Shown piece after piece: positions 16,212-62,410 of a DNA stretch of 64,000 nt (position 1 is the stretch's first letter; every line of letters starts with the position of its first letter). Both the position numbers and the translations under genes were made by a program. Under the pieces are notes generated by a model. That model had not been told where the DNA came from. It did not search any database and saw only the letters and a list, made by a program, of their open reading frames with translations. Origin of the DNA: Klebsiella pneumoniae (GTDB lineage: Bacteria; Verrucomicrobiota; Verrucomicrobiia; Limisphaerales; SXTU01); the NCBI GenBank assembly GCA_943330855.2, contig CALQJI020000015.1, positions 5,469 through 69,468 of the forward strand. Direction: 5' to 3'.

Positions 16212-18299
16212 ATGAAGCTGCTGTCCATCTCACTGACACTTGCGCTGACTTTCGCTCTCTGCGAAGCGGCGGACAAGAAAGCCACCGACGCCAAAGCCCC
16301 CGCGAAGAAAGCCCCGCCGGCGAATCTCCAGCCCAACCCCAGGAAGCTCAACCCGCCGCCCGGCGTGGTCGTGCCCGCCGACGTGAAGGCTGAACTCACC
16401 GCCGGAGCCGCCGCGCTGGGGAAGGAGATTGAGGCCTTGCGCGAATCACTGAAGGCCAAGCCCGCGCTGCTCGCCCTCCTGCCCGACGTGCAGATTTACC
16501 ACAACGCCGTCCGCTACGCGCTCGAGGACGACATCTTCACCAGCACGAACCAGTTTAACTCCGCCCGCGCGCTGCTCAAGGTCGGCTCCGAGCGCGCGAA
16601 GCAGCTCGCCGCCGGCAACGCGCCTTGGAATACGAAGGCCGGCCTGCTCGCGCTCAAGAAGGAACTCGAAGGCAAAGCCAAGGCGCCGGCCACGCTCACG
16701 CACATCCCCGTCGTGCGCGGCTACGTGTCGAAGATTGACGGCTCGGTGCAGCCTTACGGACTGAAGGTGCCGGTGACTTACCTGACCGGCGATGACAAGC
16801 CGCGCCGCCTCGACTTCTGGCTGCACGGGCGCGGCGACACGCTCAACGAGATTGCCTTCGTCGAAGGCCAGTCGCGCGCGGGCGGCACGTTCCTGCCCGA
16901 GGACGCGTTCGTGCTGGACCCTTACGGCCGCTTCATGAACGCCTTCAAGTTCGCGGGCGAGACGGACGTGTGGGAAGGCCTCGACCACGCGGCGAAGCAC
17001 TACCCGATTGACCGCAACAAGCTCGCCATGCGCGGCTTCTCGATGGGCGGCGCGGGCGCGTGGCATCTTGGCGCGCATCACCCGGACAAGTTCGCTTCCG
17101 TCAATCCCGGCGCGGGTTTCGTGGACGTGAAGCACTACCAGAAGCTCGGCGACAAGCTCGCCACCATCCCGTGGTGGGAGCAGAAGCTCTGGAACCTCTA
17201 CGACCCGCTCGCGTGCCCCATCAACCTCGCCAACTCGACACTTGTGGCCTACAGCGGCGAGGACGACGCGCAAAAAGCCGCCGCCGACCTCATGGAAGCC
17301 GCGCTGCTCAAAGACGGCGTGAAGATGACCCACATCATCGGCCCCAAGACCGGCCACTCCTACGAGAAGGATGCGAAGGTGGTCGTGGCCAAGCTCGTGG
17401 ACGAGGCGACGAACAAGGGCATCAACCACCAGCCGAAGAAGGTCACGCTGGTGACGCACTCACTGAAGTTTAACAAGGCGCACTGGGTGACGATTGATGC
17501 GCTGGAGAAGCATTGGGATGAAGCGCGAGTGGAGGCCGAAGCAACGGTGAGTGGCGCAAGTATCAAGACCAAAGGTGTCTCCGCCCTCACGGCGCACTTG
17601 ATAACAACCAAGGCCAAAACCATGGCCTCCGTGACGATTGACGGCGAGCGCCTCGCGACTTCGTCTATCGCCTCGCTCGTGAAGGTGGACGGCAAGTGGC
17701 GTGTGCAATCGGAAATCGGAAATCGGAAATCAGAAATCGCCAAGCGCCCCCACCTCCAAGGCCCCATTGACGACGCCTTCATGGACTCGTTCGTGATGGT
17801 GCGGCCCACCGGCCAGCCGTTGAACGCCGCCGTCGGGCAGTGGGCGAAGACCGAGCTGGCGGAGGCCGCGTTCCACTGGCGGCGCTACTTCCGCGGCGAG
17901 CCGCGCGTGAAGGACGACTCCGCCATCACCGATGACGACATCAAGAACAGCAACCTCGTCCTCTGGGGCGACCCGTCGTCGAACAAGCTCCTCGCCCGCA
18001 TCGCCGACAAGTTGCCCATCCAATGGAACGGCAAGGAAATCAAAGTCGACGGCAAGACCTACGACGCCACCAAGCACGCGCCCGCGTTCATCTTCCCGAA
18101 CCCGCTGAACCCGGCGCGCTACGTGGTCATCAACTCCGGCTTTACCTTCCCGCAATATGCCGGCGCCTCGAACTCGCAGCAAACCCCCAAGCTCCCCGAC
18201 TGGGCCATCCTCGACCTCAGCGTCCCGCTGGCCGACCGCGTCTTGGGCAAAGGCGTCGTCGCCGCCGACTTCTTCGGCGAGAAGTGGGAAGTGAAGTGA
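16212..18299 (+). CDS. Secreted alpha/beta hydrolase (prolyl-oligopeptidase-like, PVC type)
   Basis: Signal peptide MKLLSISLTLALTFALCEA; WLHGRG, GFSMGG, GEDD and GH motifs. Confidence 0.8.
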   Translation: MKLLSISLTLALTFALCEAADKKATDAKAPAKKAPPANLQPNPRKLNPPPGVVVPADVKAELTAGAAALGKEIEALRESLKAKPALLALLPDVQIYHNAVRYALEDDIFTSTNQFNSARALLKVGSERAKQLAAGNAPWNTKAGLLALKKELEGKAKAPATLTHIPVVRGYVSKIDGSVQPYGLKVPVTYLTGDDKPRRLDFWLHGRGDTLNEIAFVEGQSRAGGTFLPEDAFVLDPYGRFMNAFKFAGETDVWEGLDHAAKHYPIDRNKLAMRGFSMGGAGAWHLGAHHPDKFASVNPGAGFVDVKHYQKLGDKLATIPWWEQKLWNLYDPLACPINLANSTLVAYSGEDDAQKAAADLMEAALLKDGVKMTHIIGPKTGHSYEKDAKVVVAKLVDEATNKGINHQPKKVTLVTHSLKFNKAHWVTIDALEKHWDEARVEAEATVSGASIKTKGVSALTAHLITTKAKTMASVTIDGERLATSSIASLVKVDGKWRVQSEIGNRKSEIAKRPHLQGPIDDAFMDSFVMVRPTGQPLNAAVGQWAKTELAEAAFHWRRYFRGEPRVKDDSAITDDDIKNSNLVLWGDPSSNKLLARIADKLPIQWNGKEIKVDGKTYDATKHAPAFIFPNPLNPARYVVINSGFTFPQYAGASNSQQTPKLPDWAILDLSVPLADRVLGKGVVAADFFGEKWEVK
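17707..17739. repeat. In-frame heptamer tandem repeat (AATCGGA, about 4.7 units) inside a CDS
   Basis: aatcgga aatcgga aatcgga aatcaga aatcg encodes QSEIGNRKSEI. Confidence 0.85.
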
Positions 18300-20710
18300 G
18301 CGGAGAATGGGGCCAGCCGGAGCGCCAACTTTGGCTATGCTTCCTCGCCGTCATTTCCACCTCACTCCCCGCCCAAAGCTTCCGCGATCCGGCTGACCAG
18401 CCGTTTCGCCGTGCGCCCATGTCCGTGGCGGCGCGCAGCGTGGTCATACCGCTCGCGACGAATATCCACCTCGCCTTCGACACCGAGACGCTCCGCACGC
18501 ACACGGCTTGGCGCGGGCCGGCGCTGAACTTGCACGGCGCGCCCTACGACGGCGCGGCGGGACGCTTCCTCGCGGACTTCGCCGGCGAGTTCATCTTCAC
18601 CAACCCGCCGCTCTTTCCGTGGGCCGGCGGGAAGCCCGCGCGCAACATCCTCACCGACTTCCCGTCGAAGCCGCGCTTCCTCGGCGTCAGCACGCGCGGC
18701 GGCGTCACGACGCTGATGTATGAGCTGCCGCTCGACGCCGAGGAGGTCGTGCGCGTGCATGAGTCGCCGTCGGTGCAGTGGGTGGACGGCGTGCCGGTGG
18801 TGGTCAGACGTTTCGAGCTCTCGGCGAGCTACATGGACCTTGAATTCACCGCGCACATGGAGCCCGGGCGCATGACGGCCATCGGCCAGAACTCCGCTGC
18901 GATGGGCATCCTGCGCGAGAAGGATTTTCTCCTCACCGCGTTCCGGGGCCGTCCGCTGCTGGGCTGGAAACCCGCGACAGCGCAGGCGGATTACGTCATC
19001 GAGCTGCACCGCGAGAAGAACGGCGAGAGCGAAGTCATCCCGCGGCACGTCACCGGCGACGAGACGCACGCGGTCGTTCACATCCCGTCGCATCGCGGGG
19101 AAATCTCGTTTGAAGTCCTGTCCGTCGTGTGCGCGGACAAGGCGGAGGCGGAGCGGTTGTTGCCGAAGCTCATCCCCGCGCGCGTCGCTCCGCCCGAGCT
19201 GATGCGCGTCTCGGAGCCGCCCGCCGCCGCCCCGACGAACCGGCTCGTGCTCTTCGCCGGGTCCACAAACGCGCCTTCGCCTGTTGTCACCAACGCCGGC
19301 TTCCGCATCGAGTCGCTGCCGCTTCCCCGTAGCCGCCGAGGTCAGGAGGCGGAGGGCAACGAACGCCAAAGGAATCCGCCTCCTCACCTCGGCGGCTACG
19401 GCGACTCCGTCACCGGCCTCGACTTCCTGCCCAGCGGCGACCTCGTGCTCTGCACCGCGCTGGGCGAGGTCTTCATCGTGTCGCAACTAGCGAGCCCGAC
19501 GAACGCGCCGGTGTGGCGGCGCTTTGCGCGCGGCCTGATGGAGCCGGGCGGGCTGCGGGTCTTCAGCGGCGAAATCTTCACCGCGCAGAAGTGCGAGCTG
19601 ACGCGCCTGCGCGACACGGACGGCGACGGCGAGGCGGACCTCTTCGAGTGCGTGAGCCAGGCGTGGGGCTTCAATGGCAACGGGCGACAGTTCGCCGTCG
19701 GCCCGGTCGCGGACAAGGAAGGCAAGTTTCACGTCCTCCTCGACGGGCGCGGCAGCCGGTGGGAAGTGCCGTTCCGTGGTTGGGACGCGCGGTTCAGCCG
19801 GGCGGGAAAGGACTTCGAGGGCTGGGCCAGCGGCTTCCGGTCGCCCGGCGGCAGCGGGACCTTCGGCGGTGAGGTTTTTGTGACTGACAACGCGGGGCCG
19901 TGGGTGCCTGCGGCCAAGTTGATTCACGTGCAGGAATCCAAGTTCCAAGGCCACCCTTCCACGCAGCCCGCGCCGCAGGACCAGTTCAAGGAGCCGAAGG
20001 AATTCGCGCCACCCGCCGTGTGGTTTCCGGCGCGGCTGGCGAAGCAAGTGGCGGGCTTCGCGACGGTGCCCGAGAGCTGGAGCGCGTTCGCCGGGCAAGT
20101 GCTCGTGGCCGATGGTGAAGGTCGCTTGTTGCGCGTGCAGTTGGAACAGGTGAACGGCGAGTGGCAGGGCGCGGTGTGGCCCTTCCTGGAAGTAGCCGCC
20201 GAGGTGAGGAGGCTGACGGCAGCGACTCCACCAAGCGCTCCCATTCCGCCCGCTCACCTCGGCGGCTACACCCGCCTCGCGTTTGCGACGGACGGCGAAC
20301 TCTTCGTGGGCGGAGCTGCTGGCCCGAGTCGCATTCGGCCCATCGGTCCCATCGCATTCGAGGTGAAGTCGGTGACGGCATTGGCGGACGGCTTCGAGCT
20401 GACCTTCACGCAGCCGGTGGACGCAGCGAGCGCGGCGAAGGCGGCGAGTTACGAAGTCGCGCAGTTCAACTACCGCCACGAAGTCGGCCCCGGCGCGGAA
20501 CACGACTTCGACGGGCCGGTGAACAAGGCATCGGCGCTGAAGGTATCCGCCGTGAGCATTGCCGCCGATGGCCTGAGCGCGCGGCTCAAGGTGCCCGGCC
20601 TGCGCGCGGGCTTCGTCACGAGCGTCAGCGCCGCTGGCGTGCGCAGCGCGACCGCGCAACCGCTGCGCCACGGCACGTTCTTCTACACGCTAAACCAGTT
20701 GCCGAAGTGA
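18296..20710 (+). CDS. PVC-type exported beta-propeller protein (sorbosone-dehydrogenase-like region) with two in-frame REP insertions
   Basis: GTG start overlapping the upstream stop; hydrophobic N-terminus; ELTRLRDTDGDGEAD, ASGFRSP and TDNAG.WVP motifs. Confidence 0.7.
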   Translation: MSGEWGQPERQLWLCFLAVISTSLPAQSFRDPADQPFRRAPMSVAARSVVIPLATNIHLAFDTETLRTHTAWRGPALNLHGAPYDGAAGRFLADFAGEFIFTNPPLFPWAGGKPARNILTDFPSKPRFLGVSTRGGVTTLMYELPLDAEEVVRVHESPSVQWVDGVPVVVRRFELSASYMDLEFTAHMEPGRMTAIGQNSAAMGILREKDFLLTAFRGRPLLGWKPATAQADYVIELHREKNGESEVIPRHVTGDETHAVVHIPSHRGEISFEVLSVVCADKAEAERLLPKLIPARVAPPELMRVSEPPAAAPTNRLVLFAGSTNAPSPVVTNAGFRIESLPLPRSRRGQEAEGNERQRNPPPHLGGYGDSVTGLDFLPSGDLVLCTALGEVFIVSQLASPTNAPVWRRFARGLMEPGGLRVFSGEIFTAQKCELTRLRDTDGDGEADLFECVSQAWGFNGNGRQFAVGPVADKEGKFHVLLDGRGSRWEVPFRGWDARFSRAGKDFEGWASGFRSPGGSGTFGGEVFVTDNAGPWVPAAKLIHVQESKFQGHPSTQPAPQDQFKEPKEFAPPAVWFPARLAKQVAGFATVPESWSAFAGQVLVADGEGRLLRVQLEQVNGEWQGAVWPFLEVAAEVRRLTAATPPSAPIPPAHLGGYTRLAFATDGELFVGGAAGPSRIRPIGPIAFEVKSVTALADGFELTFTQPVDAASAAKAASYEVAQFNYRHEVGPGAEHDFDGPVNKASALKVSAVSIAADGLSARLKVPGLRAGFVTSVSAAGVRSATAQPLRHGTFFYTLNQLPK
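19329..19399. repeat. GTAG REP doublet (REPIN-like), in frame within a CDS
   Basis: gtagccgccgaggtcaggaggcgg ... ccgcctcctcacctcggcggctac, read as RSRRGQEA...PPPHLGGY. Confidence 0.92.
20192..20269. repeat. GTAG REP doublet (REPIN-like), in frame within a CDS
   Basis: 78 bp: gtagccgccgaggtgaggagg ... ccgcccgctcacctcggcggctac, read as VAAEVRRL...PPAHLGGY. Confidence 0.92.
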
Positions 20711-43691: not shown

Positions 43692-43739
43692 GTGGGGGAC
43701 TTCGACTTGGGAAGGCGGGCGGGGCTTCACGGATGATTC

Positions 43740-43825
43740 GTAGCCGCCGAGGTGAGGCGGCGGGGCTTTCGAGCAAAACAAGTTTCCAGACTCGGCACGG
43801 TCCGCTTTCTTACCTCGGCGGCTAC
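43740..43825. repeat. GTAG REP doublet supplying the TAG stop of the adjacent gene
   Basis: gtagccgccgaggtgaggcggcgg ... ccgctttcttacctcggcggctac; cta at 43822-43824 is the stop codon. Confidence 0.9.
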
Positions 43826-45003
43826 AACCCGCGCCAAATCATCTCCAGCGCGATGAGGGAGTAGCTCGTCGTTAGCGCGGTTTCCTTTTCCCACCAACGG
43901 GCGTTGTCGTTGCTCCATGAACCGTCTTTCTGCTGGAGGTTCATCAAGCGCAGAGCAACGTCTCGCCGCCAGTTCACGCGCTTGCCGTCCTTCGTTTCCA
44001 GCTCGTGGACCTGCGCGGCGGTCAGGCCCTTCGTTAGCAGGTGCAGGTAGTAATAGAGCCCCTGCGGCCCCATGCCGGGGTTTTCCTCCAGCGTGTAGTT
44101 GGCGCGCAGCCAGTCCAGCACAGCGGTCACACGCGCGTCGTCGCGCTTCAGGTCGGTGTAGATGTAACTGAGCAAGCCCGCGTAGCTCGCGCTGCCGTAG
44201 GAACGAAGGGCGACGCGGCCCGTCGCGGAATTTGTGGTGCCGCCCGCCATGCTGTGGCCGGGGTAGTAGATGAATCCGCCCTTGTTCGTCGCGTCGCCGG
44301 AGGCCCATGACTCGGGGTTGGAGCCGGGCAAATTCTGGCAGTGCTGGAGGAAGCGGATCGCGGCTTGCCAGTCGAGGTCCTTGGTATCGGCGAGCTTCGT
44401 GTCGGCCACGAGGCGCTTGCTGTGATAGAGAGCTTCGAGGGCGATGAGCGTGTTGTTCAGGTCGGAGTGCGCATACTTATTCCCGTAGCCCACGCCGCCA
44501 TCGAAGGGCGTGTCGAGCCGCCCCTTCTCGCCGAAGTCCACTTGTGAGCCGACGACGAACGCACGGGCCTTGCGTGCGGCAGCGTCGTATTCGGGCCGAG
44601 CGGCGGACACGAGCGCGAGGAGGGAGAGCGAGGTGTTGTAGTTCGCCATGTTGGTGGCGTAGATGCCGCCGTCGGGCTTGGCGCTGGCTAGGAGGAAGGC
44701 GTAGCCGCGCTGGATTTGCGGCGGGGGATTTTTCAGAAACTTGCCCGACGGCTCGCCGTTGAGCGCGACCAGCGGGAGCGCGGTGACGGCCGGATGGTCG
44801 GGCGTGGTCCACCAGCCGTTGGAGTTTTGGTTCGTGAGCAGCCAAGCGATGCCTCGGTCAATGGCGCGCTGGACCTCATGACGCAGCGACTCGTCATGGG
44901 CGAACGGCACGGGGAGCAGCGAAGGCTTCGGAGCTTCGGCAGCGAAGGCACTTGGCACGAGGCAGACGACAAGAGCGAGGGCGAATATAATTGGCAGACG
45001 CAT
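43822..45003 (-). CDS. Secreted prenyltransferase/squalene-oxidase-repeat protein
   Basis: Signal peptide; QNSNGWW, DGGVGY, DLNNT and QQKDGSW repeats. Confidence 0.82.
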   Translation of the reverse strand: MRLPIIFALALVVCLVPSAFAAEAPKPSLLPVPFAHDESLRHEVQRAIDRGIAWLLTNQNSNGWWTTPDHPAVTALPLVALNGEPSGKFLKNPPPQIQRGYAFLLASAKPDGGIYATNMANYNTSLSLLALVSAARPEYDAAARKARAFVVGSQVDFGEKGRLDTPFDGGVGYGNKYAHSDLNNTLIALEALYHSKRLVADTKLADTKDLDWQAAIRFLQHCQNLPGSNPESWASGDATNKGGFIYYPGHSMAGGTTNSATGRVALRSYGSASYAGLLSYIYTDLKRDDARVTAVLDWLRANYTLEENPGMGPQGLYYYLHLLTKGLTAAQVHELETKDGKRVNWRRDVALRLMNLQQKDGSWSNDNARWWEKETALTTSYSLIALEMIWRGL

Positions 45004-52882: not shown

Positions 52883-53167
52883 ATGACGGCCATTTCCAAC
52901 TGGGATGCGGTGCCCGCCTTCAGCAGCGAAGAGGAAGAGGCGGACTACTGGCGCGAGCACCGGCTGGACTTACGGCTGATGGACGCGGCGCTGGTCGCGG
53001 GTGCGGAGTCCACGGAATCGGTGACGGTGACGTTGCGGATGGATCCGCGGATGCTCTCGCGGATCAAGCGGCTGGCGCGGTCGCGGTTCTTAAATTATCA
53101 GAGCATGGTCAAGCAGTGGTTGAGCGAACGGATGGAGCAGGAACTTCGGGAACGAGGCATGAAATGA
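52883..53167 (+). CDS. BrnA/CopG-like antitoxin
   Basis: PAFSSEEEEADYW, VTLRMD and YQSMVKQWL (ribbon-helix-helix-like). Confidence 0.75.
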   Translation: MTAISNWDAVPAFSSEEEEADYWREHRLDLRLMDAALVAGAESTESVTVTLRMDPRMLSRIKRLARSRFLNYQSMVKQWLSERMEQELRERGMK

Positions 53168-53826
53168 AGACGACAACGAACAACTTAAAGGCAGGGCAGG
53201 GGACGCGGGCGTTCACGCTGGTGGAACTGCTCGTGGTCATTTCCATCATCGGTATCATCGCCGCGATGTCGGTTGCGGGCATCCGCTCGGCCTCCATGAA
53301 ACGGGATCAGTCGGCGGTCGAGGCGCAGAAGGCAAAACTGATTTTGGCGTTGGAGGACTACAAGGGGAAGTTCGGGTCCTATCCGCCGGATCGTCCCGGG
53401 ACGACGGTAACCAATGCCGTCTGGAATCCGCTGGCGTATGAGTTGGGTGGCATGCGGCGGTCGGGGGTGAATTTTCAGGCCGAGACTGACCCCAGTCACG
53501 TCGTTACCCCGGCGATGTTGCTCTCCTATTACGGCCTGACCGGGCTGTTGAACGCCACTCCGTCCGCGACGGTGCGCGGCAAGTCTTTCCTCAATCTCAA
53601 GGGGGGAGCCGGCAAAACGGCGGACTACGTGGTCGTCACCAATGGCGTGCCTGGCATGCCCCCGGTGATGCTGCTGAAGGTTGCGGCGGACCATCCGGCC
53701 TTGTCCGAGAACGTCTGGCGCTATCGTTCGTATCCCACCAACGGCCACAATCCGAAGAGCTACGACCTGTGGGCGGAAATTAAGAAGAGCAACGGCACCA
53801 CCAACACGATCAGCAACTGGAAGTGA
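53164..53826 (+). CDS. Prepilin-type (GspG-like) protein
   Basis: RA|FTLVELLVVISIIGII class III signal; NPKSYDLW; ends SNWK. Confidence 0.9.
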   Translation: MKTTTNNLKAGQGTRAFTLVELLVVISIIGIIAAMSVAGIRSASMKRDQSAVEAQKAKLILALEDYKGKFGSYPPDRPGTTVTNAVWNPLAYELGGMRRSGVNFQAETDPSHVVTPAMLLSYYGLTGLLNATPSATVRGKSFLNLKGGAGKTADYVVVTNGVPGMPPVMLLKVAADHPALSENVWRYRSYPTNGHNPKSYDLWAEIKKSNGTTNTISNWK

Positions 53827-53840
53827 ACCTGAATTTACCC

Positions 53841-54656
53841 ATGAAACATCATCCTCATCGCACTCACCCACGGCAGCGAGCCATGACGCTCATTGAGCTG
53901 CTCGTGGTCATTAGCATCATCGGCGTGCTGGCCGGTCTCATTCTTCCAGCCGTGGGTAACGTGAAGAAAAAGGCCCGCGTGGTGCAGGCTCAGAAGGACA
54001 TGGCGGACATGAAGGGCGCGATCAGTGTCTATCAGCATGATTACAGCCGTCTGCCGGCCTCTGGGGCTCCCGTCGCGCCTGATGTGGTGCAGGGAGCCGG
54101 CATTGCGGGCACGGATTTCACCTTCGGCACGACTGGCACTGGATACGGGACCAACGTTTACAACAACGGCAACGCGCCTGGCAGCTACCAACAGAGTAAC
54201 CGTGAGTTGATGGTGATTCTGACCGCCTCTGGTTTTACCGGCTACACGCCACATTCCTCGGTGCAGTTAGACAGGCGCAATCCGCGCAAGACCGGCTACT
54301 TCAACGCCAAGTCCTCGGGGGCAAGTGGTGCCACCGCCGGTAAGGGGTTGGGCGATGACGGAGTGATGCGCGACCCGTGGGGCAACCCCTACATCATCGC
54401 ATTGGACCTGAACTACGATGGGTGGGTCTCGAACTCGGTTTACAACCACAACACCGTGAACAACGGCGTCACCCCGAGCACAGGTTTGGTGCGGCAGGGC
54501 GCGGCGGGCACGCACACGTGGGCGTTGAAGGACTCGGTGATGATCATGTCGTTCGGTGCGGACGGGCAGTTCGGCCCAAGCAGCGGCGCCCCGGTGGTGG
54601 CGGCCGCTGCGGCCAATGCAGATCCCAACAAAGACAACGTCCTGAGCTGGAAATGA
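53841..54656 (+). CDS. Prepilin-type (GspG-like) protein
   Basis: RA|MTLIELLVVISIIGVLAG; DPWGNPY, SFGADG and DNVLSW motifs. Confidence 0.9.
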   Translation: MKHHPHRTHPRQRAMTLIELLVVISIIGVLAGLILPAVGNVKKKARVVQAQKDMADMKGAISVYQHDYSRLPASGAPVAPDVVQGAGIAGTDFTFGTTGTGYGTNVYNNGNAPGSYQQSNRELMVILTASGFTGYTPHSSVQLDRRNPRKTGYFNAKSSGASGATAGKGLGDDGVMRDPWGNPYIIALDLNYDGWVSNSVYNHNTVNNGVTPSTGLVRQGAAGTHTWALKDSVMIMSFGADGQFGPSSGAPVVAAAAANADPNKDNVLSWK

Positions 54657-54660
54657 GTTT

Positions 54661-55656
54661 ATGAAGCTCGCCGCCAATCTTGTAGCCGCTGAGGTCACGA
54701 GGCGGGGCGTATGGGAGGCTGAAAGTTCCGCCTCCTCCCCTCGGCGGCTACGGGAGCAAGTGGCGTTCACCCTCATCGAGATGCTCGTGGTGCTGGGCAT
54801 CATCGGCATCCTCGCGGCGATGACGCTGCCTTCCTTCAAAAACGCGGGGAAGGGGAACGTGACCGAGTCCGCCATGCGGCAGTTGACCGACCATCTGGCG
54901 CTCGCGCGGATGAAGGCCATGACCCAGCGGACCAAGGTGTATGTGGTGTTCTCGCCGGACCTTAATTACTTCTTTGGCGCCAACCCGCTGAGTGTGACCG
55001 CATCGAACTTTCTGAGGACCAACATTGCGGCGAACAACTTGGTCGGTGGCCAGCTTACGGCCTACGCATTGTATTCGCCTCGGATGGTCGGGGAACAGCC
55101 GGGCCAGAGCACGCCCCGCTACCTGTCGGAATGGCATGATCTGCCCGCAGGCGCATTTATTCCGGCGGGCGCGTTTCGGAACCCAGCCATCTTCCACAAC
55201 GCCTTCGGTGCGCCGCTTACCAACGTGATGGTCTTTCTCGATGACAGCTACGCTTTGGGCGGCACGGTTCCTTTGCCTTTCATTGCTTTCGACGAATCCG
55301 GACGGCTCTTCGGGCGCACCGCGAACGTGATGTTGCCAATCCTCGAAGGCAGCGTGATGCACCCCAAGGACACCAACGAGATGAACCTTGTCGTCAACAC
55401 CGACGCAGTGGAGACGGCCGCTCCGATCTCGTCTGGCGGCATCGTGTCGGGCGTAGAGTATCTAGTGGCTGGCACGGTGGGGTCGCGGATCAACTATCCG
55501 TCCGTCGGCCTCATCACCGCCGGCCAGACCTTCACCGGCACCGCGACGACTACCTACACCGTCGCCGCAGGCGCACCCCGCGTGGTGCAACTCTACGGCG
55601 TGCGGATTGATTGGGTGACAGGCCGGGGCAAGGGCATTCGACCGGAGCTACAATGA
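54661..55656 (+). CDS. Minor pilin, GspH/FimT-like (Verru_Chthon D-like)
   Basis: VA|FTLIEML; LARMKAM; IAFDESGRL; IDWVTGR. Confidence 0.85.
   Translation: MKLAANLVAAEVTRRGVWEAESSASSPRRLREQVAFTLIEMLVVLGIIGILAAMTLPSFKNAGKGNVTESAMRQLTDHLALARMKAMTQRTKVYVVFSPDLNYFFGANPLSVTASNFLRTNIAANNLVGGQLTAYALYSPRMVGEQPGQSTPRYLSEWHDLPAGAFIPAGAFRNPAIFHNAFGAPLTNVMVFLDDSYALGGTVPLPFIAFDESGRLFGRTANVMLPILEGSVMHPKDTNEMNLVVNTDAVETAAPISSGGIVSGVEYLVAGTVGSRINYPSVGLITAGQTFTGTATTTYTVAAGAPRVVQLYGVRIDWVTGRGKGIRPELQ
54682..54751. repeat. GTAG REP doublet within a prepilin leader
   Basis: gtagccgctgaggtcacgaggcgg ... ccgcctcctcccctcggcggctac encodes VAAEVTRR...SASSPRRL. Confidence 0.9.
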
Positions 55657-56435
55657 ACTTCACCCGCAAACCCGCCGCCGTGTGTCCCGTAGCCGCCGAG
55701 GTGCGGAGGCGGACGCTGGTGCGTTCGAACGACTCCGCCTCCTTATCTCGGCGGCTACGGGGGACAGAGATGCCCGCCCGCCGGACGCGCGCCTTCACCA
55801 TGGTGGAGGTAGCCCTCAGCCTCGCCATCGTCGCCTTCGCGATGGTGGCCATCATCGGCGTGATGCCGATGGGCTTGAACGTGCAGAAGGAGAACCGCGA
55901 GGAAACCATCATTTCCCAAGACGCGGCGGTCATTCTCGAAGCCATTCGCGGCGGCAACGCCAGCGCGAACATCGCTTCGTTGCCCGCCTCCTGCCTGCAG
56001 ATGCAAGGCATTCACCCGACGATTGTGCCGAACGCGACGGCCACCGCGTTGGACATTGTGCACAGACTCAGCATCCCGCGCTGGGACACGGGCTATCTCA
56101 CGAATTTGGTGCAAGCCCACTTCCGCGCCATGAGCGGCAACCTCGCGGACACGGCGACGGCCGGTTCGCAGATGTCTTTTAGCTACGTGCTGACCTCCGA
56201 GGTGACGAACTACACCGCCAGCCCGACGATGCCCACCAACGGCGTCGCGTTCCTCACCAACAACCTTTACGAGGTGAAGCTCACCTTCCAGTGGCCAGTG
56301 TATGATGGCGGCGCCGGCGTGTTCCCCACGCGCGTGGGCGAGAAGCGCCTCGTGGTTCGCACCTTCGTCAGTGGACAACTGGTCCGGGAAACCAACGGTT
56401 ACTCCTTCCGAGGCGTGACTTACCAAGGCCAATGA
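55653..56435 (+). CDS. Minor pilin, GspI/PilV-like (Verru_Chthon B-like)
   Basis: RA|FTMVEVALSLAIVAFAMVAIIGVMPMGL; YEVKLTFQWP. Confidence 0.88.
   Translation: MNFTRKPAAVCPVAAEVRRRTLVRSNDSASLSRRLRGTEMPARRTRAFTMVEVALSLAIVAFAMVAIIGVMPMGLNVQKENREETIISQDAAVILEAIRGGNASANIASLPASCLQMQGIHPTIVPNATATALDIVHRLSIPRWDTGYLTNLVQAHFRAMSGNLADTATAGSQMSFSYVLTSEVTNYTASPTMPTNGVAFLTNNLYEVKLTFQWPVYDGGAGVFPTRVGEKRLVVRTFVSGQLVRETNGYSFRGVTYQGQ
55689..55758. repeat. GTAG REP doublet within a prepilin leader
   Basis: gtagccgccgaggtgcggaggcgg ... ccgcctccttatctcggcggctac encodes VAAEVRRR...SASLSRRL. Confidence 0.9.
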
Positions 56436-57259
56436 ACTTGTCCGCCGCCAACTCTGTGCCTCAACTACGTCGGCGGGTGCGCGCCGTCACCATCCTCGAG
56501 TTGTTGGTGGCGGTGAGCCTCATCTCCTTCATCATCCTGGCGCTCTACCAGATGTTTGACACTACGCAGACGCAGATGCGCCGCACCGTCCGTGAAGTGG
56601 ACAAGTTCGAGTCCGGGCGCGCGGCAGCGGAGCTGATCAAGCGTGATTTCGCACAGATGGTCGCCGGGAACTCCACCGCCGGTGGCCTGGCCGCCAACTT
56701 CTTCGCCGGCACCAACTTTGGCGGCACCGACTGGTCCGCCGGTGCGTTCGTGATGACCAACAACGGCACCAACATCGTGCTGCAGAACACCCTGCAAGTG
56801 GCCTACTTCGTCTCCTTTGATCCGGCGGCCACCCCCACCAACTGGACCGCTGTGGCCTACCGCGTGGCCAGCAGCACCAACCCCACGACCATTGCCGGCT
56901 ACGGACTGGGCACGCTCTACCGCTGGTCGGTGAACTCAAACCGCTTCTCCACGAACTTGCAGAACACCTACTTCAGCGGCCCGCCCGTCAGCTCCTTCCA
57001 GCGGATTGCGGACAACGTCGTTCACTTCCGAGTCACCGGCATCACCAACGGCGTGGCGGTGCCTGTGAACGGCTACCTCACCAACACCAGTCTCCCCTCC
57101 CACGTCGAGATTGAGCTGGGCTACCTGGACTCGCGGACCGCCGAGCGCGCGCGCGGGATGCTGCCCAACACCAACGCCGTGCGGGCCGCCCTCGCCACCA
57201 ACGTCGCCAACGTCCACCTCTTCCGCCTCCAGATACCCATCCGCCCCGGCCAGCAATGA
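56432..57259 (+). CDS. Minor pilin, GspJ/PilW-like (Verru_Chthon C-like)
   Basis: RA|VTILELLVAV; IADNVVHF; LPSHVEIELG.LD. Confidence 0.88.
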   Translation: MNLSAANSVPQLRRRVRAVTILELLVAVSLISFIILALYQMFDTTQTQMRRTVREVDKFESGRAAAELIKRDFAQMVAGNSTAGGLAANFFAGTNFGGTDWSAGAFVMTNNGTNIVLQNTLQVAYFVSFDPAATPTNWTAVAYRVASSTNPTTIAGYGLGTLYRWSVNSNRFSTNLQNTYFSGPPVSSFQRIADNVVHFRVTGITNGVAVPVNGYLTNTSLPSHVEIELGYLDSRTAERARGMLPNTNAVRAALATNVANVHLFRLQIPIRPGQQ

Positions 57260-60200
57260 AAACGCGTTTCCAAACCAACCTGGGCGTGCAGCGGAAACAA
57301 CCGGTGCACGCGGTGCCAACTGCGGCCGTCGCCGGCAACGCTCGCCGAAGCCGCTCGGAGATTGCCAATTTGCAATTTGCAATTCGCAGTTTGAAATTCC
57401 CGCAAACCCCCCGCTCCGGCGTCGCCCTCGTGGCCACGCTCATCATGCTCTCGCTCGTCACCTTCATGGTGGTGGCCTTCCTCAGCGTGGCCCGTCGCGA
57501 GCGGCAGTCCGTGGCCGCGAGCCTCACCATCAACGAGGCGCGCGCCGCGATGGAGGCCGGACTGGGCCGAGCGCAGGCAGACATCGCCGCCCGCCTACTC
57601 ACGTTGGGCGACCCGTGGAGCTACGGCCTGATGGTGCCTACCAACTACCAGAACAGTGTGTTCAACGCCGCCGTCATCCCCGCCAACATTAGCCCCACCA
57701 ACGTCAACGACGTCCTCGCCCTTCAGGCCGCCGGCCAGCCCACGCCGTGGCTGCTGCATTTGGGCAACCTCCAGTATGACCCGCGCGCGCCGGTGTTCTC
57801 GACTTACTTCACCAACCGCACCCCCTACAACCTGCTCGCCAGCGAGACGAACTTGGGCCGCTACTACCTCGACTTCAACCGGGACACCATGTTTGAGAGC
57901 ACGGACAGTTTTCAGACGGGCGACCCGCAGTGGATTTCCATGCTCGAGTATCCAGGCGTGCCGCACAGCGCCACCAACCAGTTCACCAGCCGTTACACCT
58001 ACCTCGTGGCTCCGGTGGGCAAGACGATGGATCTGAACTTCATGCACAACCAGTCCAAGCGCTCCAATGGCGTGGTCACGGCCGAGGGATACTTGCGGAA
58101 CCTCGGGGTCGGCCCACACGAGCTGAATCTTTCCGCGATGCTCACGGAGTTGAATCCGTTCTGGATCTACAACTACAACACTGGCGCGGGCGTTTCTGGC
58201 ACCGGGACACCCAATGACGCCTTCACAAACGCGCTCCGGCTCGTGCTCTTCCGGAATAACAACGGCTTCAACAATCTCGACAACTTGACCGGTCAGTTTG
58301 GAGCGGGACCTGCCCTGAACCTGGCCAGCGCGCAGTTCGACGTGTTTGGCGACGGCCCTTTGATGGCAGCCTCCAATCTGACGGCCAACGTGGAGGTGAC
58401 GAACTTCCCCCGGCCCGGCGGCAATAACACCAACGCGCTGGCGCAGCGGTTCTTCGATCTGAACGAGCTGTTCATGACCACGCGCGGCTACTCGGCGACA
58501 TTCCAATCGAACCTGAACCGACTTGGCACCAACGACATCACGGCAACCCCCGCCGGTGACGCTTCCCGCCGCACTTACTACAACCTCCTCTCCACTCTCG
58601 GCGTGGAGTCGTGGCCGCAGACGGACAAGCTGAACCTGAACTGGCTGGGCACGCGGTTTCTCTACTTCAGCAACTCCGCTCCCGGCGCCTTCTACGATCT
58701 GACTTGGTCGAACGCGCCGAGCACTTCCGTCGGCGGGGAATACTTCGGGTTTGTGAACTGGACGGCGGATGAGTTTTTCAACACCGCTGCCGAGCGGATG
58801 CTCCGCGCCAGCATCACCCCCTCCGTCCTGTTCGACACCAACTGGACCGGCTTCGGCGGTGGCGGGGCCAACGTGCTCCTGACGAACTACTACTTCGGCA
58901 ACACCTTTGTCGGCATCAGCAACAACGCGACCCTCAGCGTCACGAACATCCCCATCTTCCCCGCGAGCTACTACACGCCGGAGGTCCACCGCATCCTTCA
59001 GCTCGCCGCGAACATCTACGACGCCACCACCACGAACGCCGCTGCGCCAGCCTACCCGACGCTTTTTCGCCCGGTGTTCGGGTTCAATTCCAATGGCTGG
59101 CCGAACACCGACCGCATCTTCATCAAGGGCTACTTCAACAACGGCACGGATGCCACGACCCTCCTGAGTCTCCCGGAAGTGGACTTGAGCGATCCCAACA
59201 GCCGGCTGCAGATGTATTCTACCGCCAATTCCAACCTCGGTGGCTCCGACTTCTGCCTCGTCCGGGGCACCCCCGTCGTCATCGGCGCGCGGAAGGGCTA
59301 CCCGAACTTCAACGAGTTTGCGGTGCAGTCGCTCCTGTCGGTGACCCGTCGCTTGGAGTTCGTGAAGACCAACGCGACGAACATCGGGCCGATGAATGCC
59401 GCCGGTCGCCCGCTGACTTGGACCAACCAGTCCCTCATCCTCGGGATGACGAACATTTTAGGCTTCGAGGCGTGGAACTCCTACACCGGCGCGTTCCCGC
59501 GTGCGCTCCAATTGGTGGCCACGAACGTCTCCGATGTCACCGTGGGCTTCTTTGTGAACCGGCATCTGACCACCAGCGCCGCGCAGTTCTCAGCGACGAA
59601 CTTCCTGCTGCTCTACACCAACCGCACGGTCAACGGCGTCGTGTCCAACATGGCCGCGAGCGCTTGGACCGGCACCGTGAACCCGAACGGGAACTTCAAG
59701 AGCTTCTTCTTCACCAACGCCCCGCAGTTCTCCAGCAACGCCGCTGCGGGCTACGCCTTCGCGACCAATTATCCGCCTTTGCCAGGCTTCACAAACGGCG
59801 GCTTCGCACCTGCCAGCGCGGTCGTCCCCGGCCTCGCCATCTTCAACCGCACGAACGGCTTTCCTGACCTGCGGCTGCACATCACCATCACCAACTCCAT
59901 CCGCTACGCGCTCATTGAGCCGGTAGCCAACCGAGTGGTGGACTTCGTGAACCTCGGCAACATGATCATTGGCACGAATATCTTGGCGCCGATGCCGGTG
60001 GTGGTGGCGGCAGGAAAACTGTTTCGCGCCGCACACGGGCTGCTGGATGGGATGGAGGTGCAGTTCTACACCACGGGGACTTTGCCGCCCCCGCTGTTCC
60101 CCAACACCTCGTATTTCGTGCGGAACGCCACGCTCAACGACTTCAGCGTGGCGAGCATCTCTGGCGGCGCTGCTATCGGCCTCGGCTTTGGTCTCGGGTC

Positions 60201-62274
60201 CAGTTGGGTCATCCCGCCGACTGAAGAAAACCTCGGCCTCGCGCTGGGCACCGGCGGCACCAACAACGGTGGTTCCTACTGGCTGACCACTGGACGCGTC
60301 GGCGGTGTGATGAACCCGACGGCGGGCATCAGCAACCAGATCGCGATGTGCCTCGATACGAACATCAGCGTCGGCAGCTCGAACGCGTCTGTCTGGCGGC
60401 AATACAGTCTCAACACGCCGGTGCTGCGCGAGATTGACCGCTTCCGCAAATGGATGGGCACCACCGGGGTTTTGCCCTTCAACCAAGCGATGAATACAAA
60501 CGTCACCTCCATCCAGTCGCCGTTCAATCCGACCCGTGTGGTGTCCTTGAGCGCGACCTGGGAGGCGAACGACCCGCTGGTGCATTACACGTTGGCGGAC
60601 TTGGAGAACCAGTTCCTGCCGCTACTGATCACCAACCATCCGACGCGCACGGCCATCGCCCCGCCCGGCTCCCTCTACCGCGTTGATTTCCTGATCAACC
60701 GGTTCTTCACGAACTACGGCGTCAACTTCGCATTTCAGCCGTGGGGCACGGTGCCGGATATCACGCGTTACGCGGCCTATCAGAACATCGCGAATTTCCG
60801 CACGGCGGAAGGGCAGGGCTACTACGCCGTCGCGCCCCCCGCCTACGACCAGCGGCTGAAGGACGCCGGCGTTTTCCGCTCCGACCAGTGGGATTTCCCG
60901 CAGCGCAAGTTCGCCAACCTCGGCTGGCTCGGGCGAGTCCATCGCGGGACGCCGTGGCAGACCTTCTACCTCAAGTCCGACGGGCCCAATCCGACCAACT
61001 GGCTTTACTGGGCGCACAGCGTCGAGACCAACCCGACCAACGATTGGCGGCTCGCGGAGGTCTTCACCGCCGCCATTGACTCGGACGCCACGCGCGGCCT
61101 GCTCTCAGTGAACCAGACCAACCCCGCCGCGTGGTCGGCCCTCCTGTCCGGCACGCTGGTGCTGACGAATACCAGCGTGAGCATTCCCGCGCAGGCGATG
61201 CTGATCGCCCCCGCTTCCAGGCAACTCACCAACATCATAGGCGGGCTCACCAACGGCCTGTTGAACGCGAAGCTCTCCGTCCCGATGTGGATTCCGACCG
61301 CGAACTACAGCTCCAACGATGTGGTGGCCTACTGGTCCGCTCCCTACTCGGTGCTTCCTGCGGATGCGACGACGCAGACGAAGCGCTATTACCGCGCGCT
61401 GAATGCTACGAACTTCGTTTTGGCTCCGAACGTGAGTCAAAATCCGTTCGTGCAGACATCCACGCCGAGCTTCTCCTACACATATTGGACGAATGTGAAT
61501 TACTGGGCGGGATCCCCGGTGGCCTATGCGGCGGGGGATTACGTGATCTTCCGTGATGTCTCCTACATCTCTTTGGGTGGCGGTAACTCTGGGTTCCGGC
61601 CCGACGTCTCGCCCACCTTCTGGGAGCCCGCACCGCTGCGCTCCTTCACTAAGCTGGGCTATGTGCTGCGCACCCCGGAGTTGAGCGTGCAGTCACCGTA
61701 TCTCAACGCGGGCCGCCCGTGGCAGACCGGCACGGCTTACCCCGTCGGCACCCGTGTTTACTGGCAGGGCTGGTATTATCAGGCGGTCGGAACGGGTGCC
61801 CCTGCCAATCAGCCGCCGAACCCCTACCTGAATTACGCCGATCTGCGCACGCTGGTGCAGACTTACTGGTGGCCGTTGGAGTCGCCGCCGATCGCGCGCA
61901 ACGGAGCCACGGTGGACCCCCTCACCGACGTTTTCATCGAGCGCATCCCGCAGCAGACGCTCGGCCTCATGCACTTGGAGCCCAGCCCGCGCGTGGCCAT
62001 CTACGCCTATGGCCAGTCTCTGAAACCCGCCGAGCGCGGCGTGTATGTCGGCGGCGGCCCCTATCAAGGCATCACGACGAACTACCAGGTGACCGGCGAG
62101 CAGGCCTCCCGCTCGGTGGTGCGGATTGACGGACTGGCGGAGCCGGGTCTGCTGCCGCCTTCGCGTCTGCCCGCTCCGCCGCACTTGCCCGTAAGTTGGG
62201 TCACGCCCGTGCCGCCGTTGGTTTTTCCGCGCTTCATCATCGAAAGCTTCAAGCTAACTCCGGCTGATTATTGA
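57256..62274 (+). CDS. Giant GspK/PilX-like pilin (Verru_Chthon A-like), 1672 aa, with putative carbohydrate-binding modules
   Basis: SG|VALVATLIMLSLV (no Glu5, as in the K/X class); last gene of an ATGA-coupled cassette; Trp/Tyr modules near the C-terminus. Confidence 0.85.
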   Translation: MKTRFQTNLGVQRKQPVHAVPTAAVAGNARRSRSEIANLQFAIRSLKFPQTPRSGVALVATLIMLSLVTFMVVAFLSVARRERQSVAASLTINEARAAMEAGLGRAQADIAARLLTLGDPWSYGLMVPTNYQNSVFNAAVIPANISPTNVNDVLALQAAGQPTPWLLHLGNLQYDPRAPVFSTYFTNRTPYNLLASETNLGRYYLDFNRDTMFESTDSFQTGDPQWISMLEYPGVPHSATNQFTSRYTYLVAPVGKTMDLNFMHNQSKRSNGVVTAEGYLRNLGVGPHELNLSAMLTELNPFWIYNYNTGAGVSGTGTPNDAFTNALRLVLFRNNNGFNNLDNLTGQFGAGPALNLASAQFDVFGDGPLMAASNLTANVEVTNFPRPGGNNTNALAQRFFDLNELFMTTRGYSATFQSNLNRLGTNDITATPAGDASRRTYYNLLSTLGVESWPQTDKLNLNWLGTRFLYFSNSAPGAFYDLTWSNAPSTSVGGEYFGFVNWTADEFFNTAAERMLRASITPSVLFDTNWTGFGGGGANVLLTNYYFGNTFVGISNNATLSVTNIPIFPASYYTPEVHRILQLAANIYDATTTNAAAPAYPTLFRPVFGFNSNGWPNTDRIFIKGYFNNGTDATTLLSLPEVDLSDPNSRLQMYSTANSNLGGSDFCLVRGTPVVIGARKGYPNFNEFAVQSLLSVTRRLEFVKTNATNIGPMNAAGRPLTWTNQSLILGMTNILGFEAWNSYTGAFPRALQLVATNVSDVTVGFFVNRHLTTSAAQFSATNFLLLYTNRTVNGVVSNMAASAWTGTVNPNGNFKSFFFTNAPQFSSNAAAGYAFATNYPPLPGFTNGGFAPASAVVPGLAIFNRTNGFPDLRLHITITNSIRYALIEPVANRVVDFVNLGNMIIGTNILAPMPVVVAAGKLFRAAHGLLDGMEVQFYTTGTLPPPLFPNTSYFVRNATLNDFSVASISGGAAIGLGFGLGSSWVIPPTEENLGLALGTGGTNNGGSYWLTTGRVGGVMNPTAGISNQIAMCLDTNISVGSSNASVWRQYSLNTPVLREIDRFRKWMGTTGVLPFNQAMNTNVTSIQSPFNPTRVVSLSATWEANDPLVHYTLADLENQFLPLLITNHPTRTAIAPPGSLYRVDFLINRFFTNYGVNFAFQPWGTVPDITRYAAYQNIANFRTAEGQGYYAVAPPAYDQRLKDAGVFRSDQWDFPQRKFANLGWLGRVHRGTPWQTFYLKSDGPNPTNWLYWAHSVETNPTNDWRLAEVFTAAIDSDATRGLLSVNQTNPAAWSALLSGTLVLTNTSVSIPAQAMLIAPASRQLTNIIGGLTNGLLNAKLSVPMWIPTANYSSNDVVAYWSAPYSVLPADATTQTKRYYRALNATNFVLAPNVSQNPFVQTSTPSFSYTYWTNVNYWAGSPVAYAAGDYVIFRDVSYISLGGGNSGFRPDVSPTFWEPAPLRSFTKLGYVLRTPELSVQSPYLNAGRPWQTGTAYPVGTRVYWQGWYYQAVGTGAPANQPPNPYLNYADLRTLVQTYWWPLESPPIARNGATVDPLTDVFIERIPQQTLGLMHLEPSPRVAIYAYGQSLKPAERGVYVGGGPYQGITTNYQVTGEQASRSVVRIDGLAEPGLLPPSRLPAPPHLPVSWVTPVPPLVFPRFIIESFKLTPADY
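57366..57398. repeat. Heptamer tandem repeat (CAATTTG type) within a prepilin leader
   Basis: caatttg caatttg caattcg cagtttg aaatt encodes NLQFAIRSLK. Confidence 0.8.
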
Positions 62275-62329
62275 GGGTCTGACTTTGGAATTTGTGACTG
62301 CGAACGAAACACAACCAGCGCCCTCCGGG

Positions 62330-62410
62330 GTAGCCGCCGCGGTAAGGAGGCGGAGCATGAATTCGGAATTCGGAATTCGGAATTCGATATGGAAGGAATC
62401 CGCCCCCTCC
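62330..62410. repeat. GTAG REP left arm with nested GAATTCG x4 and a decayed right arm
   Basis: gtagccgccgcggtaaggaggcgg; heptamers at 62359-62386; then tccgccccctcc. Confidence 0.8.

Follow-up and report, generated by a model that had tools for sequence, protein, structure and literature searches.

The DNA analysed here (the window, 64,000 nucleotides at positions 5469-69468 of contig C15 of a source genome labelled G000) carries two copies of a repetitive extragenic palindromic (REP) element, termed REP-A, in the 5′ coding segments of two adjacent minor pseudopilin genes. Comparison with related genomes indicates that both copies are probably read in frame, as a translated part of enlarged class III leader peptides that would be removed from the mature proteins. 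The two genes belong to a set of six co-directional genes at 53116-62274, in which two GspG-like pseudopilin genes are followed by H-, I-, J- and K-like genes (order G-G-H-I-J-K; referred to below as H, I, J and K). The source genome is a metagenome-assembled genome (MAG) of 5.42 Mb in 153 contigs, with 64% GC and a completeness of 86%. Its closest named relatives are uncultured Verrucomicrobia MAGs, public sequencing runs with matching DNA come from lake and other freshwater metagenomes, and the host is described as an uncultured freshwater Verrucomicrobium. The I-like protein has matches in 35 of the 41 genomes searched.

REP-A doublets in the H and I leaders

Gene H starts with an ATG 7 nt from the stop codon of the second GspG-like gene (G2), and its predicted mature protein begins with FTLIEML at 54766. 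The REP-A copy begins 21 nt past this ATG and consists of two inverted, GTAG-tagged arms separated by a loop of ∼20 nt; that of gene I begins 36 nt past the I start codon (Table 1). The consensus of the family is GTAGCCGCCGAGGTGAGGAGGCGGA, a spacer of ∼20 nt and TCCGCCTCCTCACCTCGGCGGCTAC, the right arm being the reverse complement of the left. The genome contains 98 strictly paired copies with a modal length of 70 nt, and a profile search with nhmmer detects 151 loci, of which 126 have a length of 60 nt or more. Ranked by profile score, the copy in H stands at the 34th percentile and that in I at the 75th. Both translate as VAAEV.RR...SAS..RRLR, which bears out a first-pass annotation of the window that had described full 70-bp doublets read in the same frame in the two leaders. 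Since frame 2 of the left arm is shut by TAG and TGA, two frames are open and the shared frame is a 1-in-2 event. The predicted RNA hairpins have folding energies of −67.9 kcal/mol for H (z −5.4) and −74.6 kcal/mol for I (z −4.7).

REP-A fits the definition of a GTAG-tagged REP (a short GC-rich palindrome with GTAG at one end, forming inverted dimers), and it is multi-copy in all five relatives tested. An Rfam scan of 54500-57600 gave no significant match, its sole match being to a spurious miRNA model (E 0.22). No REP-flanked gene for a REP-associated tyrosine transposase (REPtron) was found in the 86%-complete genome: the Y1_Tnp profile gives one match above cut-off (C18:20421-20654, 36.7 bits) and one below, and the 3 kb on each side of these matches contain no REP-A.

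Repeats can be collapsed or mis-joined during assembly, and a MAG of 153 contigs, together with the tendency of contigs from other runs to break at repeats, invites the question whether the two doublets are artefacts. This is hardly credible. Two other studies yielded contigs (X9 record 24 and X11 record 5) that run through the I repeat and its flanks, the reading frames continue straight through both elements, and REP-A occupies the identical H-leader site in two independently assembled relatives, G015 and G007; such orthologous insertions argue against an error of assembly. None of the public-run contigs listed carries a REP-less allele, that is, a joint that skips the element, and these contigs tend to break at repeats. 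Three short contigs from an RNA library fall on the H gene, which is no demonstration of transcription.

Conserved starts and open frames across the genus

The comparison draws on 13 further genomes of the genus and, as outgroups, four of the same order in which the operon was located, giving 52 genus leaders (12 of H, 13 of I, 14 of J and 13 of K). The start codons keep their positions relative to the upstream genes. For H, the distance between the ATG and the G2 stop codon is 7 nt in 11 of 12 loci, with the ATG one base closer in the twelfth; the start of I overlaps the H stop codon as ATGA in 12 of 12 loci and additionally as GTGA in G012, and the starts of J and K overlap the upstream stop codon in 13 of 14 and 12 of 13 loci, respectively. 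From these coupled starts to the cleavage site the frame is open in all 52 leaders. As a control, 46 REP-A copies elsewhere in the genome face the head of a gene, and only 10 of these are open throughout with an upstream start, H and I being counted among the 10.

Length differences between orthologous leaders are all multiples of three. The I leader of G013, which has no insert, reads MNLPRHATPVCPRRPTRA|FTMVEV (the bar marks the predicted cleavage site), and that of the window is the same leader plus 87 nt, 70 of which are REP. REP-A at the H site of G015 has a loop that is 15 nt longer and heptamer-like, and a heptamer array in the K leader of the window (see below) exceeds that of G015 by 21 nt (three units, seven codons). 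We count at least 11 separate insertion events, for which the probability of frame preservation by chance, if the frame were free, is (1/3)^11 = 6e-6, a figure that is rough because the tally was made by eye and the genomes are kin, so that the independence of the events is overstated. In three repeat-bearing leaders, H of G017 and both J and K of G011, no further in-frame ATG, GTG or TTG follows the conserved start. The conserved coupled starts, the open frame and these relatives with no other start together make it most likely that translation begins upstream of the repeats, which would place them inside translated leaders and not in intergenic DNA.

The alternative is that the true starts lie 3′ of the repeats, at GTG 54760 in H and ATG 55770 in I; the elements would then be untranslated spacers or 5′-untranslated hairpins, and the open frames upstream of these codons a chance product of 64% GC. 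For gene I this may be so, in that ATG 55770 would yield a textbook 8-aa leader, MPARRTRA|FTMVE, with a Shine–Dalgarno-like GGGGGA 5 nt upstream. A GGGAG also precedes GTG 54760, and a codon-likelihood gene model chooses the downstream start for both genes. Moreover, REP-A is mostly extragenic: on our own crude codon-likelihood gene map (3997 genes, 87% of the genome), 80 of the 151 loci are intergenic and 40 touch a gene end (120 in all), the other 31 being inside genes. Di Nocera, De Gregorio and Rocco (2013; PMC3733652) caution that a REP at the N-terminal end of a coding sequence is often due to misannotation. However, GTG 54760 is the sole other in-frame start in the H leader and stands at position −2, so that it would leave a leader of two residues, M-A|F, and the codon at this position is CTG in G007. 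The lack of a second canonical start in the H, J and K leaders named above, the length differences in multiples of three and the contrast between 52 of 52 open leaders and 10 of 46 REP-A copies elsewhere are likewise difficult to reconcile with downstream starts, which we consider rather unlikely. The first-pass annotation had itself named starts downstream of the repeats, with the repeats consequently intergenic, as what would overturn its reading; the conserved coupled starts speak against this, while gene I may yet begin at 55770.

Table 1. Positions of the genes, leaders and repeats in the window
Feature	Position	Strand	Basis or remark
H-like minor pseudopilin open reading frame (ORF)	54661..55656	+	ORF list; orthologues in 11 other genus loci
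H leader, 35 codons, MKLAANL[VAAEVTRRGVWEAESSASSPRRL]REQVA|F	54661..54765	+	
REP-A doublet, 70 bp, in H leader	54682..54751	.	inverted arms 54682-54705/54728-54751; nhmmer 48.9 bits, E 4.8e-15
I-like minor pseudopilin ORF	55653..56435	+	ATG overlaps H stop as ATGA; predicted mature protein from FTMVEVA at 55794
I leader, 47 codons	55653..55793	+	87 nt (29 codons) longer than repeat-free G013 leader
REP-A doublet, 70 bp, in I leader	55689..55758	.	inverted repeat 55681-55713/55734-55766; nhmmer 60.3 bits, E 1.3e-18
Alternative in-frame ATG of gene I, 3′ of repeat	55770..55772	+	read from sequence
J-like minor pseudopilin ORF	56432..57259	+	ordinary 18-codon leader 56432-56485
K-like large ORF, 1672 aa	57256..62274	+	ATG overlaps J stop; leader of 55 codons 57256-57420
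Heptamer array CAATTTG x4.7 in K leader	57366..57398	.	TRF: period 7, score 45
Single REP-A arm (half element), 3′ of K stop	62329..62358	.	nhmmer E 4.7e-06

Repeats in the other leaders of the operon

The first-pass annotation had extended the pattern to four consecutive genes, adding a CAATTTG array in the K leader and a decayed right REP arm in the J leader (56458-56480). The K array is confirmed. It is one of 347 period-7 tandem arrays in the genome with a score of at least 40 (∼4.5 copies, modal length 30-33 nt, 102 different units), among which the CAATTTG unit occurs once, and it ends upstream of the conserved part of K, which begins with VALVATL at 57421. The J arm was rejected after profile search, BLAST and folding had all proved negative: nhmmer run with --max over 53001-62400 reports nothing at this place at E≤100, the J leader matched no repeat when compared with the genome by BLAST, and the fold is ordinary (z +1.07). 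At 18 aa the J leader is inside the 14-23 aa range of the repeat-free J leaders of relatives. The absence of the J element shrinks the four-gene claim to two genes with REPs and one with a heptamer array. At 56437-56479, contigs of two other studies (X9 and X11) diverge from, or have other sequence in place of, 41 nt of the J leader while their flanks match, and the J leader looks hypervariable between strains.

Among the 52 genus leaders, 15 contain multi-copy repeats according to an objective scan, and 19 when diverged copies recognised by eye are added. Approximately five families are represented. REP-A is also present in J of G011; REP-B, read as GARPSGRR...PEGRAP, in H of G013 and G017 and J of G017; REP-C in J of G008, with a similar element in K of G007; REP-D, read as SLSLCGARGEGRGEG...FSPRSAKGEG, in I of G017, G007, G014 and G012 and K of G017, G004 and G014; and REP-E in K of G011. 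These inserts match numerous loci of the window's own genome (57-135 for REP-A, 58-84 for REP-D, 53 for REP-E and 13-18 for REP-B), while BLAST of the repeat-free leaders against the same genome gives zero matches. REP-A and REP-D are multi-copy in the relatives' own genomes too. Leaders in the genus reach 77-84 aa, whereas those of the outgroups are short (8-9 aa for K, 13-17 aa for J and 8-39 aa overall). The longest I leader, that of G012 (L029, 3245-3500), has 84 codons and a GTG start overlapping the H stop; it contains a REP-D variant in which the loop is replaced by (GGCAAAA)x4 and (CTTTTTC)x4, still in frame.

The mature parts of the proteins present a different picture. When ∼93 kb of operon DNA (15 genus loci) was scanned for segments matching at least five loci of the window's genome, 18 segments were found in 15 H, I, J or K leaders, eight on the N-methyl motif, four outside the operon and none in mature parts past the N-methyl motif. 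The eight N-methyl segments reflect conservation of the gene family. Three segments labelled 'mature_G2' are all within ∼50 nt of the mature N-terminus and hence represent the same motif. At best, the REP-A profile matches the mature parts of the window's operon with E≥0.32. Confinement of the repeats to leaders is thus a feature of this operon that recurs across the genus; the first-pass annotation had stated it for the pilin genes of the window and had suggested checking it in relatives.

It is conceivable that the hairpins, 21-36 nt past the coupled starts, are themselves what is selected, as regulators that would set the ratio of the minor pseudopilins by throttling translational coupling or by providing RNA processing sites, with the leader peptide as a by-product. 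The hairpins are predicted to be very stable (z −5.4 and −4.7), and in different members of the genus several unrelated families occupy the same few (three or four) junctions. REP-A is found at the same H site in three genomes with H proteins 60-69% identical to that of the window. In addition, 15-19 of the 52 leaders are occupied, compared with the 14.8% of the genome's intergenic regions that contain repeat runs; the latter value comes from a crude k-mer mask (14-mers present at least six times) that is unspecific in coding DNA, where it flags the FTLIELL motif, and so was kept for the intergenic baseline only. However, presence of the elements varies among close relatives, the I leader of G013 being without one, and 33-37 of the 52 leaders have none at all. 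The elements are generic genome-wide repeats and not a dedicated motif, and the outgroup operons manage with leaders of 8-39 aa. Selection for regulation is an improbable explanation of the H and I copies, and a regulatory role of the hairpins, which the first-pass annotation had raised, is a lead at most.

Leader class and prepilin peptidase

The prepilin N-methyl motif is present in H, I and J. In a six-frame search PF07963 scores 26.4 bits for H, 23.7 for J and 20.9 for I (21.4 with neighbours) against a cut-off of 21.2, and on the full-length proteins it scores just under this cut-off, at 20.3, 17.7 and 19.8 bits in the same order. K has no Pfam match, and its N-terminal sequence, G|VALVATL, is without Glu at +5. 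Throughout the genome there are 71 N_methyl matches. An A24 prepilin peptidase gene is also present, PF01478 matching at C16:56444-57067 (38.5 and 30.5 bits) within one open frame of 381 aa.

Typical class III leaders are 5-30 aa long and are removed by an A24 prepilin peptidase. The leaders described here share the basic character of this class, followed by [G/A]|[F/M/V]-T-L-x-E and a hydrophobic helix, and differ from it in length, which is 35, 47 and 55 aa in H, I and K and up to 77-84 aa in relatives, and is largely encoded by the repeats. For comparison, the median shortest-ATG leader of the prepilin-like genes in the genome is 14 aa. Heptamer-type arrays lie in or just before other prepilin-like leaders, at C79:4634-4699 (+), MRPFAIRHSPLAIRTA|FTLIELL, and at C20:30503-30577 (−), ..PIRQSAIGNRQSA|FTLIE.

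The four minor pseudopilins distantly resemble the Verru_Chthon cassette, for which H, I, J and K match D, B, C and A (TIGR02596, TIGR02598, TIGR02599 and TIGR02600) as best or second-best family. Each of these profiles starts at the predicted mature N-terminus and only the N-terminal helix aligns. The NCBIfam scores are far under the curated cut-offs (34.9 versus 70, 23.9 versus 51.4, 29.7 versus 256.5 and 23.6 versus 332.3 for H, I, J and K), and we therefore describe a resemblance to the cassette and not membership of it. GspH likewise matches the N-terminus of H only and under its cut-off, and no GspH or GspJ of type II secretion systems scores above the curated NCBIfam cut-offs.

Origin and tolerance of the repeats

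We propose that REP-A, an interspersed GTAG-tagged inverted dimer of ∼70 bp, landed twice in the operon, in the 5′ coding segments of H and I. Consecutive genes overlap as ATGA with no intergenic DNA, so the leader codons are the only slack in the operon that spares the mature protein, and survivors would be limited to in-frame, stop-free insertions. Such repeats would be translated from the conserved coupled start as an enlarged leader of 35 aa in H and 47 aa in I, which is presumably cut off at A|F by the A24 prepilin peptidase, leaving the mature pseudopilin unchanged. The heptamer array in K may likewise be extra in-frame sequence that is tolerated, and no such insert is present in the J leader. 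An operon with no intergenic DNA, compared in 14 genomes, makes a fairly clean argument that a repeat can genuinely belong to a signal peptide which is translated and then removed, and such leaders appear to take up repeats repeatedly while the mature protein is kept clean. If correct, this would provide a natural test of the limits of length and sequence within which a prepilin leader is still processed, a caution to gene callers against trimming such starts, and a documented case of where selfish DNA persists in compact genomes.

Several observations weigh against this reading or narrow it. Besides the J leader, which lacks the proposed element, and the downstream start available to gene I, the −1 residue of H and I is Ala and not the canonical Gly (as in many of the 69 further prepilin-like genes), the genomes compared are MAGs, and none of the listed contigs from other runs spans the H repeat. 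In ∼4.2 kb of prepilin leaders two copies are seen, where 0.026 are expected at the in-body coding rate (P=3e-4) and 0.71 at the non-coding rate (P=0.16). Leaders in the source genome thus behave like non-coding DNA for REP-A density, not better. The first-pass annotation had named leaders no more enriched than other unconstrained regions as a refuting outcome, and by this test REP-A in the source genome is not denser in leaders than in non-coding DNA, though it is denser than in average coding DNA.

The interpretation is altered further by REP-A copies in ordinary proteins. The 31 intragenic copies reside in 28 genes, most with a strong same-frame coding score on both flanks (for example at L040, L054, L056, L047, L042, L052 and L049). 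Pfam was run on 20 of the 28 host genes, covering 21 of the 31 copies, and 19 of these genes had a Pfam family. REP-A lies inside the DAO domain, Aminotran_3 (twice in one gene) and the catalytic domain of a Mur ligase, and in the linkers that join the domains of GatB, an ABC exporter and an HTTM protein; a sulfatase is also among the hosts with a Pfam domain spanning or flanking the insert. In all, ∼29 copies are in frame in ordinary, uncleaved proteins, including an FAD oxidoreductase, aminotransferases, GatB and the Mur ligase. Heptamer arrays behave similarly: 164 lie at least 150 nt inside genes of the crude map, and 110 of these have same-frame coding on both flanks. Removal by cleavage is consequently not needed for survival, and it does not account for the tolerance of the repeats in general. 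The claim of the first-pass annotation that the insertions survive because they are cut off therefore holds in part, in that the repeats of the operon are confined to leaders, are probably translated and occur in a genome with an A24 gene, and fails as a general rule. The in-frame copies of REP-A (∼29) and of heptamer arrays (∼110) in ordinary enzymes may be of wider interest than the leaders themselves.

The window contains a further host of this kind, an ORF of 804 aa at 18296-20710 (+), with two in-frame REP-A copies at 19328-19400 (SRRGQEAEGNERQRNPPPHLGGY) and 20191-20270 (VAAEVRRLTAATPPSAPIPPAHLGGY). Coding scores in the same frame are positive on either side of each copy. Pfam yields only sub-threshold matches to DUF6797 and DUF7133 for this ORF, and in-frame insertion was accordingly validated on the other genes. 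Examples of the heptamer arrays are C11:70453-70482 and C1:137475-137507; one array stands in an ABC/UvrA-like 'FIFDEPTTGL' context, and 12 adjacent pairs of arrays have reverse-complement units.

The first-pass annotation had also suggested that the Arg-rich frame of REP-A was co-opted as leader. This frame is used by three of three leader copies and nine of 28 in-body copies (Fisher P=0.049), and the bias reaches P=0.008 only on adding five Sec-like N-termini that were picked by eye. Co-option is thus weakly hinted at, a lead and not a finding. In the five Sec-like cases REP-A lies directly 5′ of a hydrophobic stretch that resembles the h-region of a Sec signal peptide, at C41:26380-26452 (+), C42:18595-18665 (−), C71:414-485 (+), C89:13600-13671 (−) and C23:42005-42076 (−); one reads MRPP[VAAEVRRRISCVAKAVRLLTSAAT]LFCLLTLPCPAQ. 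REP-A may supply the basic n-region of these N-termini, the predicted starts of which are uncertain.

A more far-reaching proposal would be that the four leaders are selected, recurrent landing pads, at which at least five unrelated palindromic or tandem families arrived independently, lengthening the leaders to ∼84 aa, and that the repeats have been put to use: the hairpins would set translational coupling, and hence pseudopilin stoichiometry, the Arg-rich frame would serve as a basic n-region, and the same might hold for some Sec signal peptides (C41:26380, C42:18595, C71:414 and C89:13600). Taken as a whole, we regard this combination as decidedly unlikely.

Relation to known repeat families

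In PMC3733652, GTAG-tagged REPs are described as short GC-rich palindromes with GTAG at the outer end of the arm, which form inverted dimers, reach high copy numbers and lie mainly downstream of ORFs, the TAG often being the stop codon of the upstream ORF. A minority are reported there in frame in known proteins, encoding 20-30 aa, with the highest count in Opitutus terrae, a Verrucomicrobium. REP-A agrees with this description in its tag, dimers, copy number, mostly extragenic location, TAG as stop and in-frame minority. It departs from the view, expressed in the same paper, of N-terminal REPs as probable misannotation, in that the comparative data presented here argue for REPs in translated class III leaders, and from the elements described there in the recurrence of several repeat families at the same genes.

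The tolerance of REP-A by ordinary proteins, with a domain continuing on both sides, is reminiscent of the Rickettsia palindromic element (RPE), a palindromic selfish DNA inserted in frame in unrelated protein genes and tolerated there (Ogata et al. 2000, as summarised in the review PMC10969869). RPEs are ∼150 bp long, belong to a different phylum and, in the parts of these sources that describe them, are not said to concentrate in cleaved signal peptides; they are CGTC-tagged according to PMC3733652. Judged by this description (size and tag) and by the negative Rfam scan, REP-A, at 70 bp and GTAG-tagged, does not belong to the RPE sequence family. In-frame intragenic palindromes (RPE) and intragenic GTAG REPs in Verrucomicrobia (PMC3733652) are thus already known, and what is new is the comparative case for leaders of class III that probably bear translated REPs, together with their recurrence. 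A literature search, which did not extend to the supplementary target list of PMC3733652, turned up no report of REPs in the leaders of prepilins or in other signal-peptide leaders.

The extragenic copies of REP-A show a distinct relation to gene tails. On the crude gene map, 101 copies are at least 55 nt long and not deep in a gene, and for 83 of them a gene tail is no more than 150 nt away. At 43738-43826 of the window, and at ∼40 loci genome-wide, REP-A overlaps the 3′ end of a gene by ∼5 nt, so that the GTAG of the element gives the TAG stop codon of that gene.

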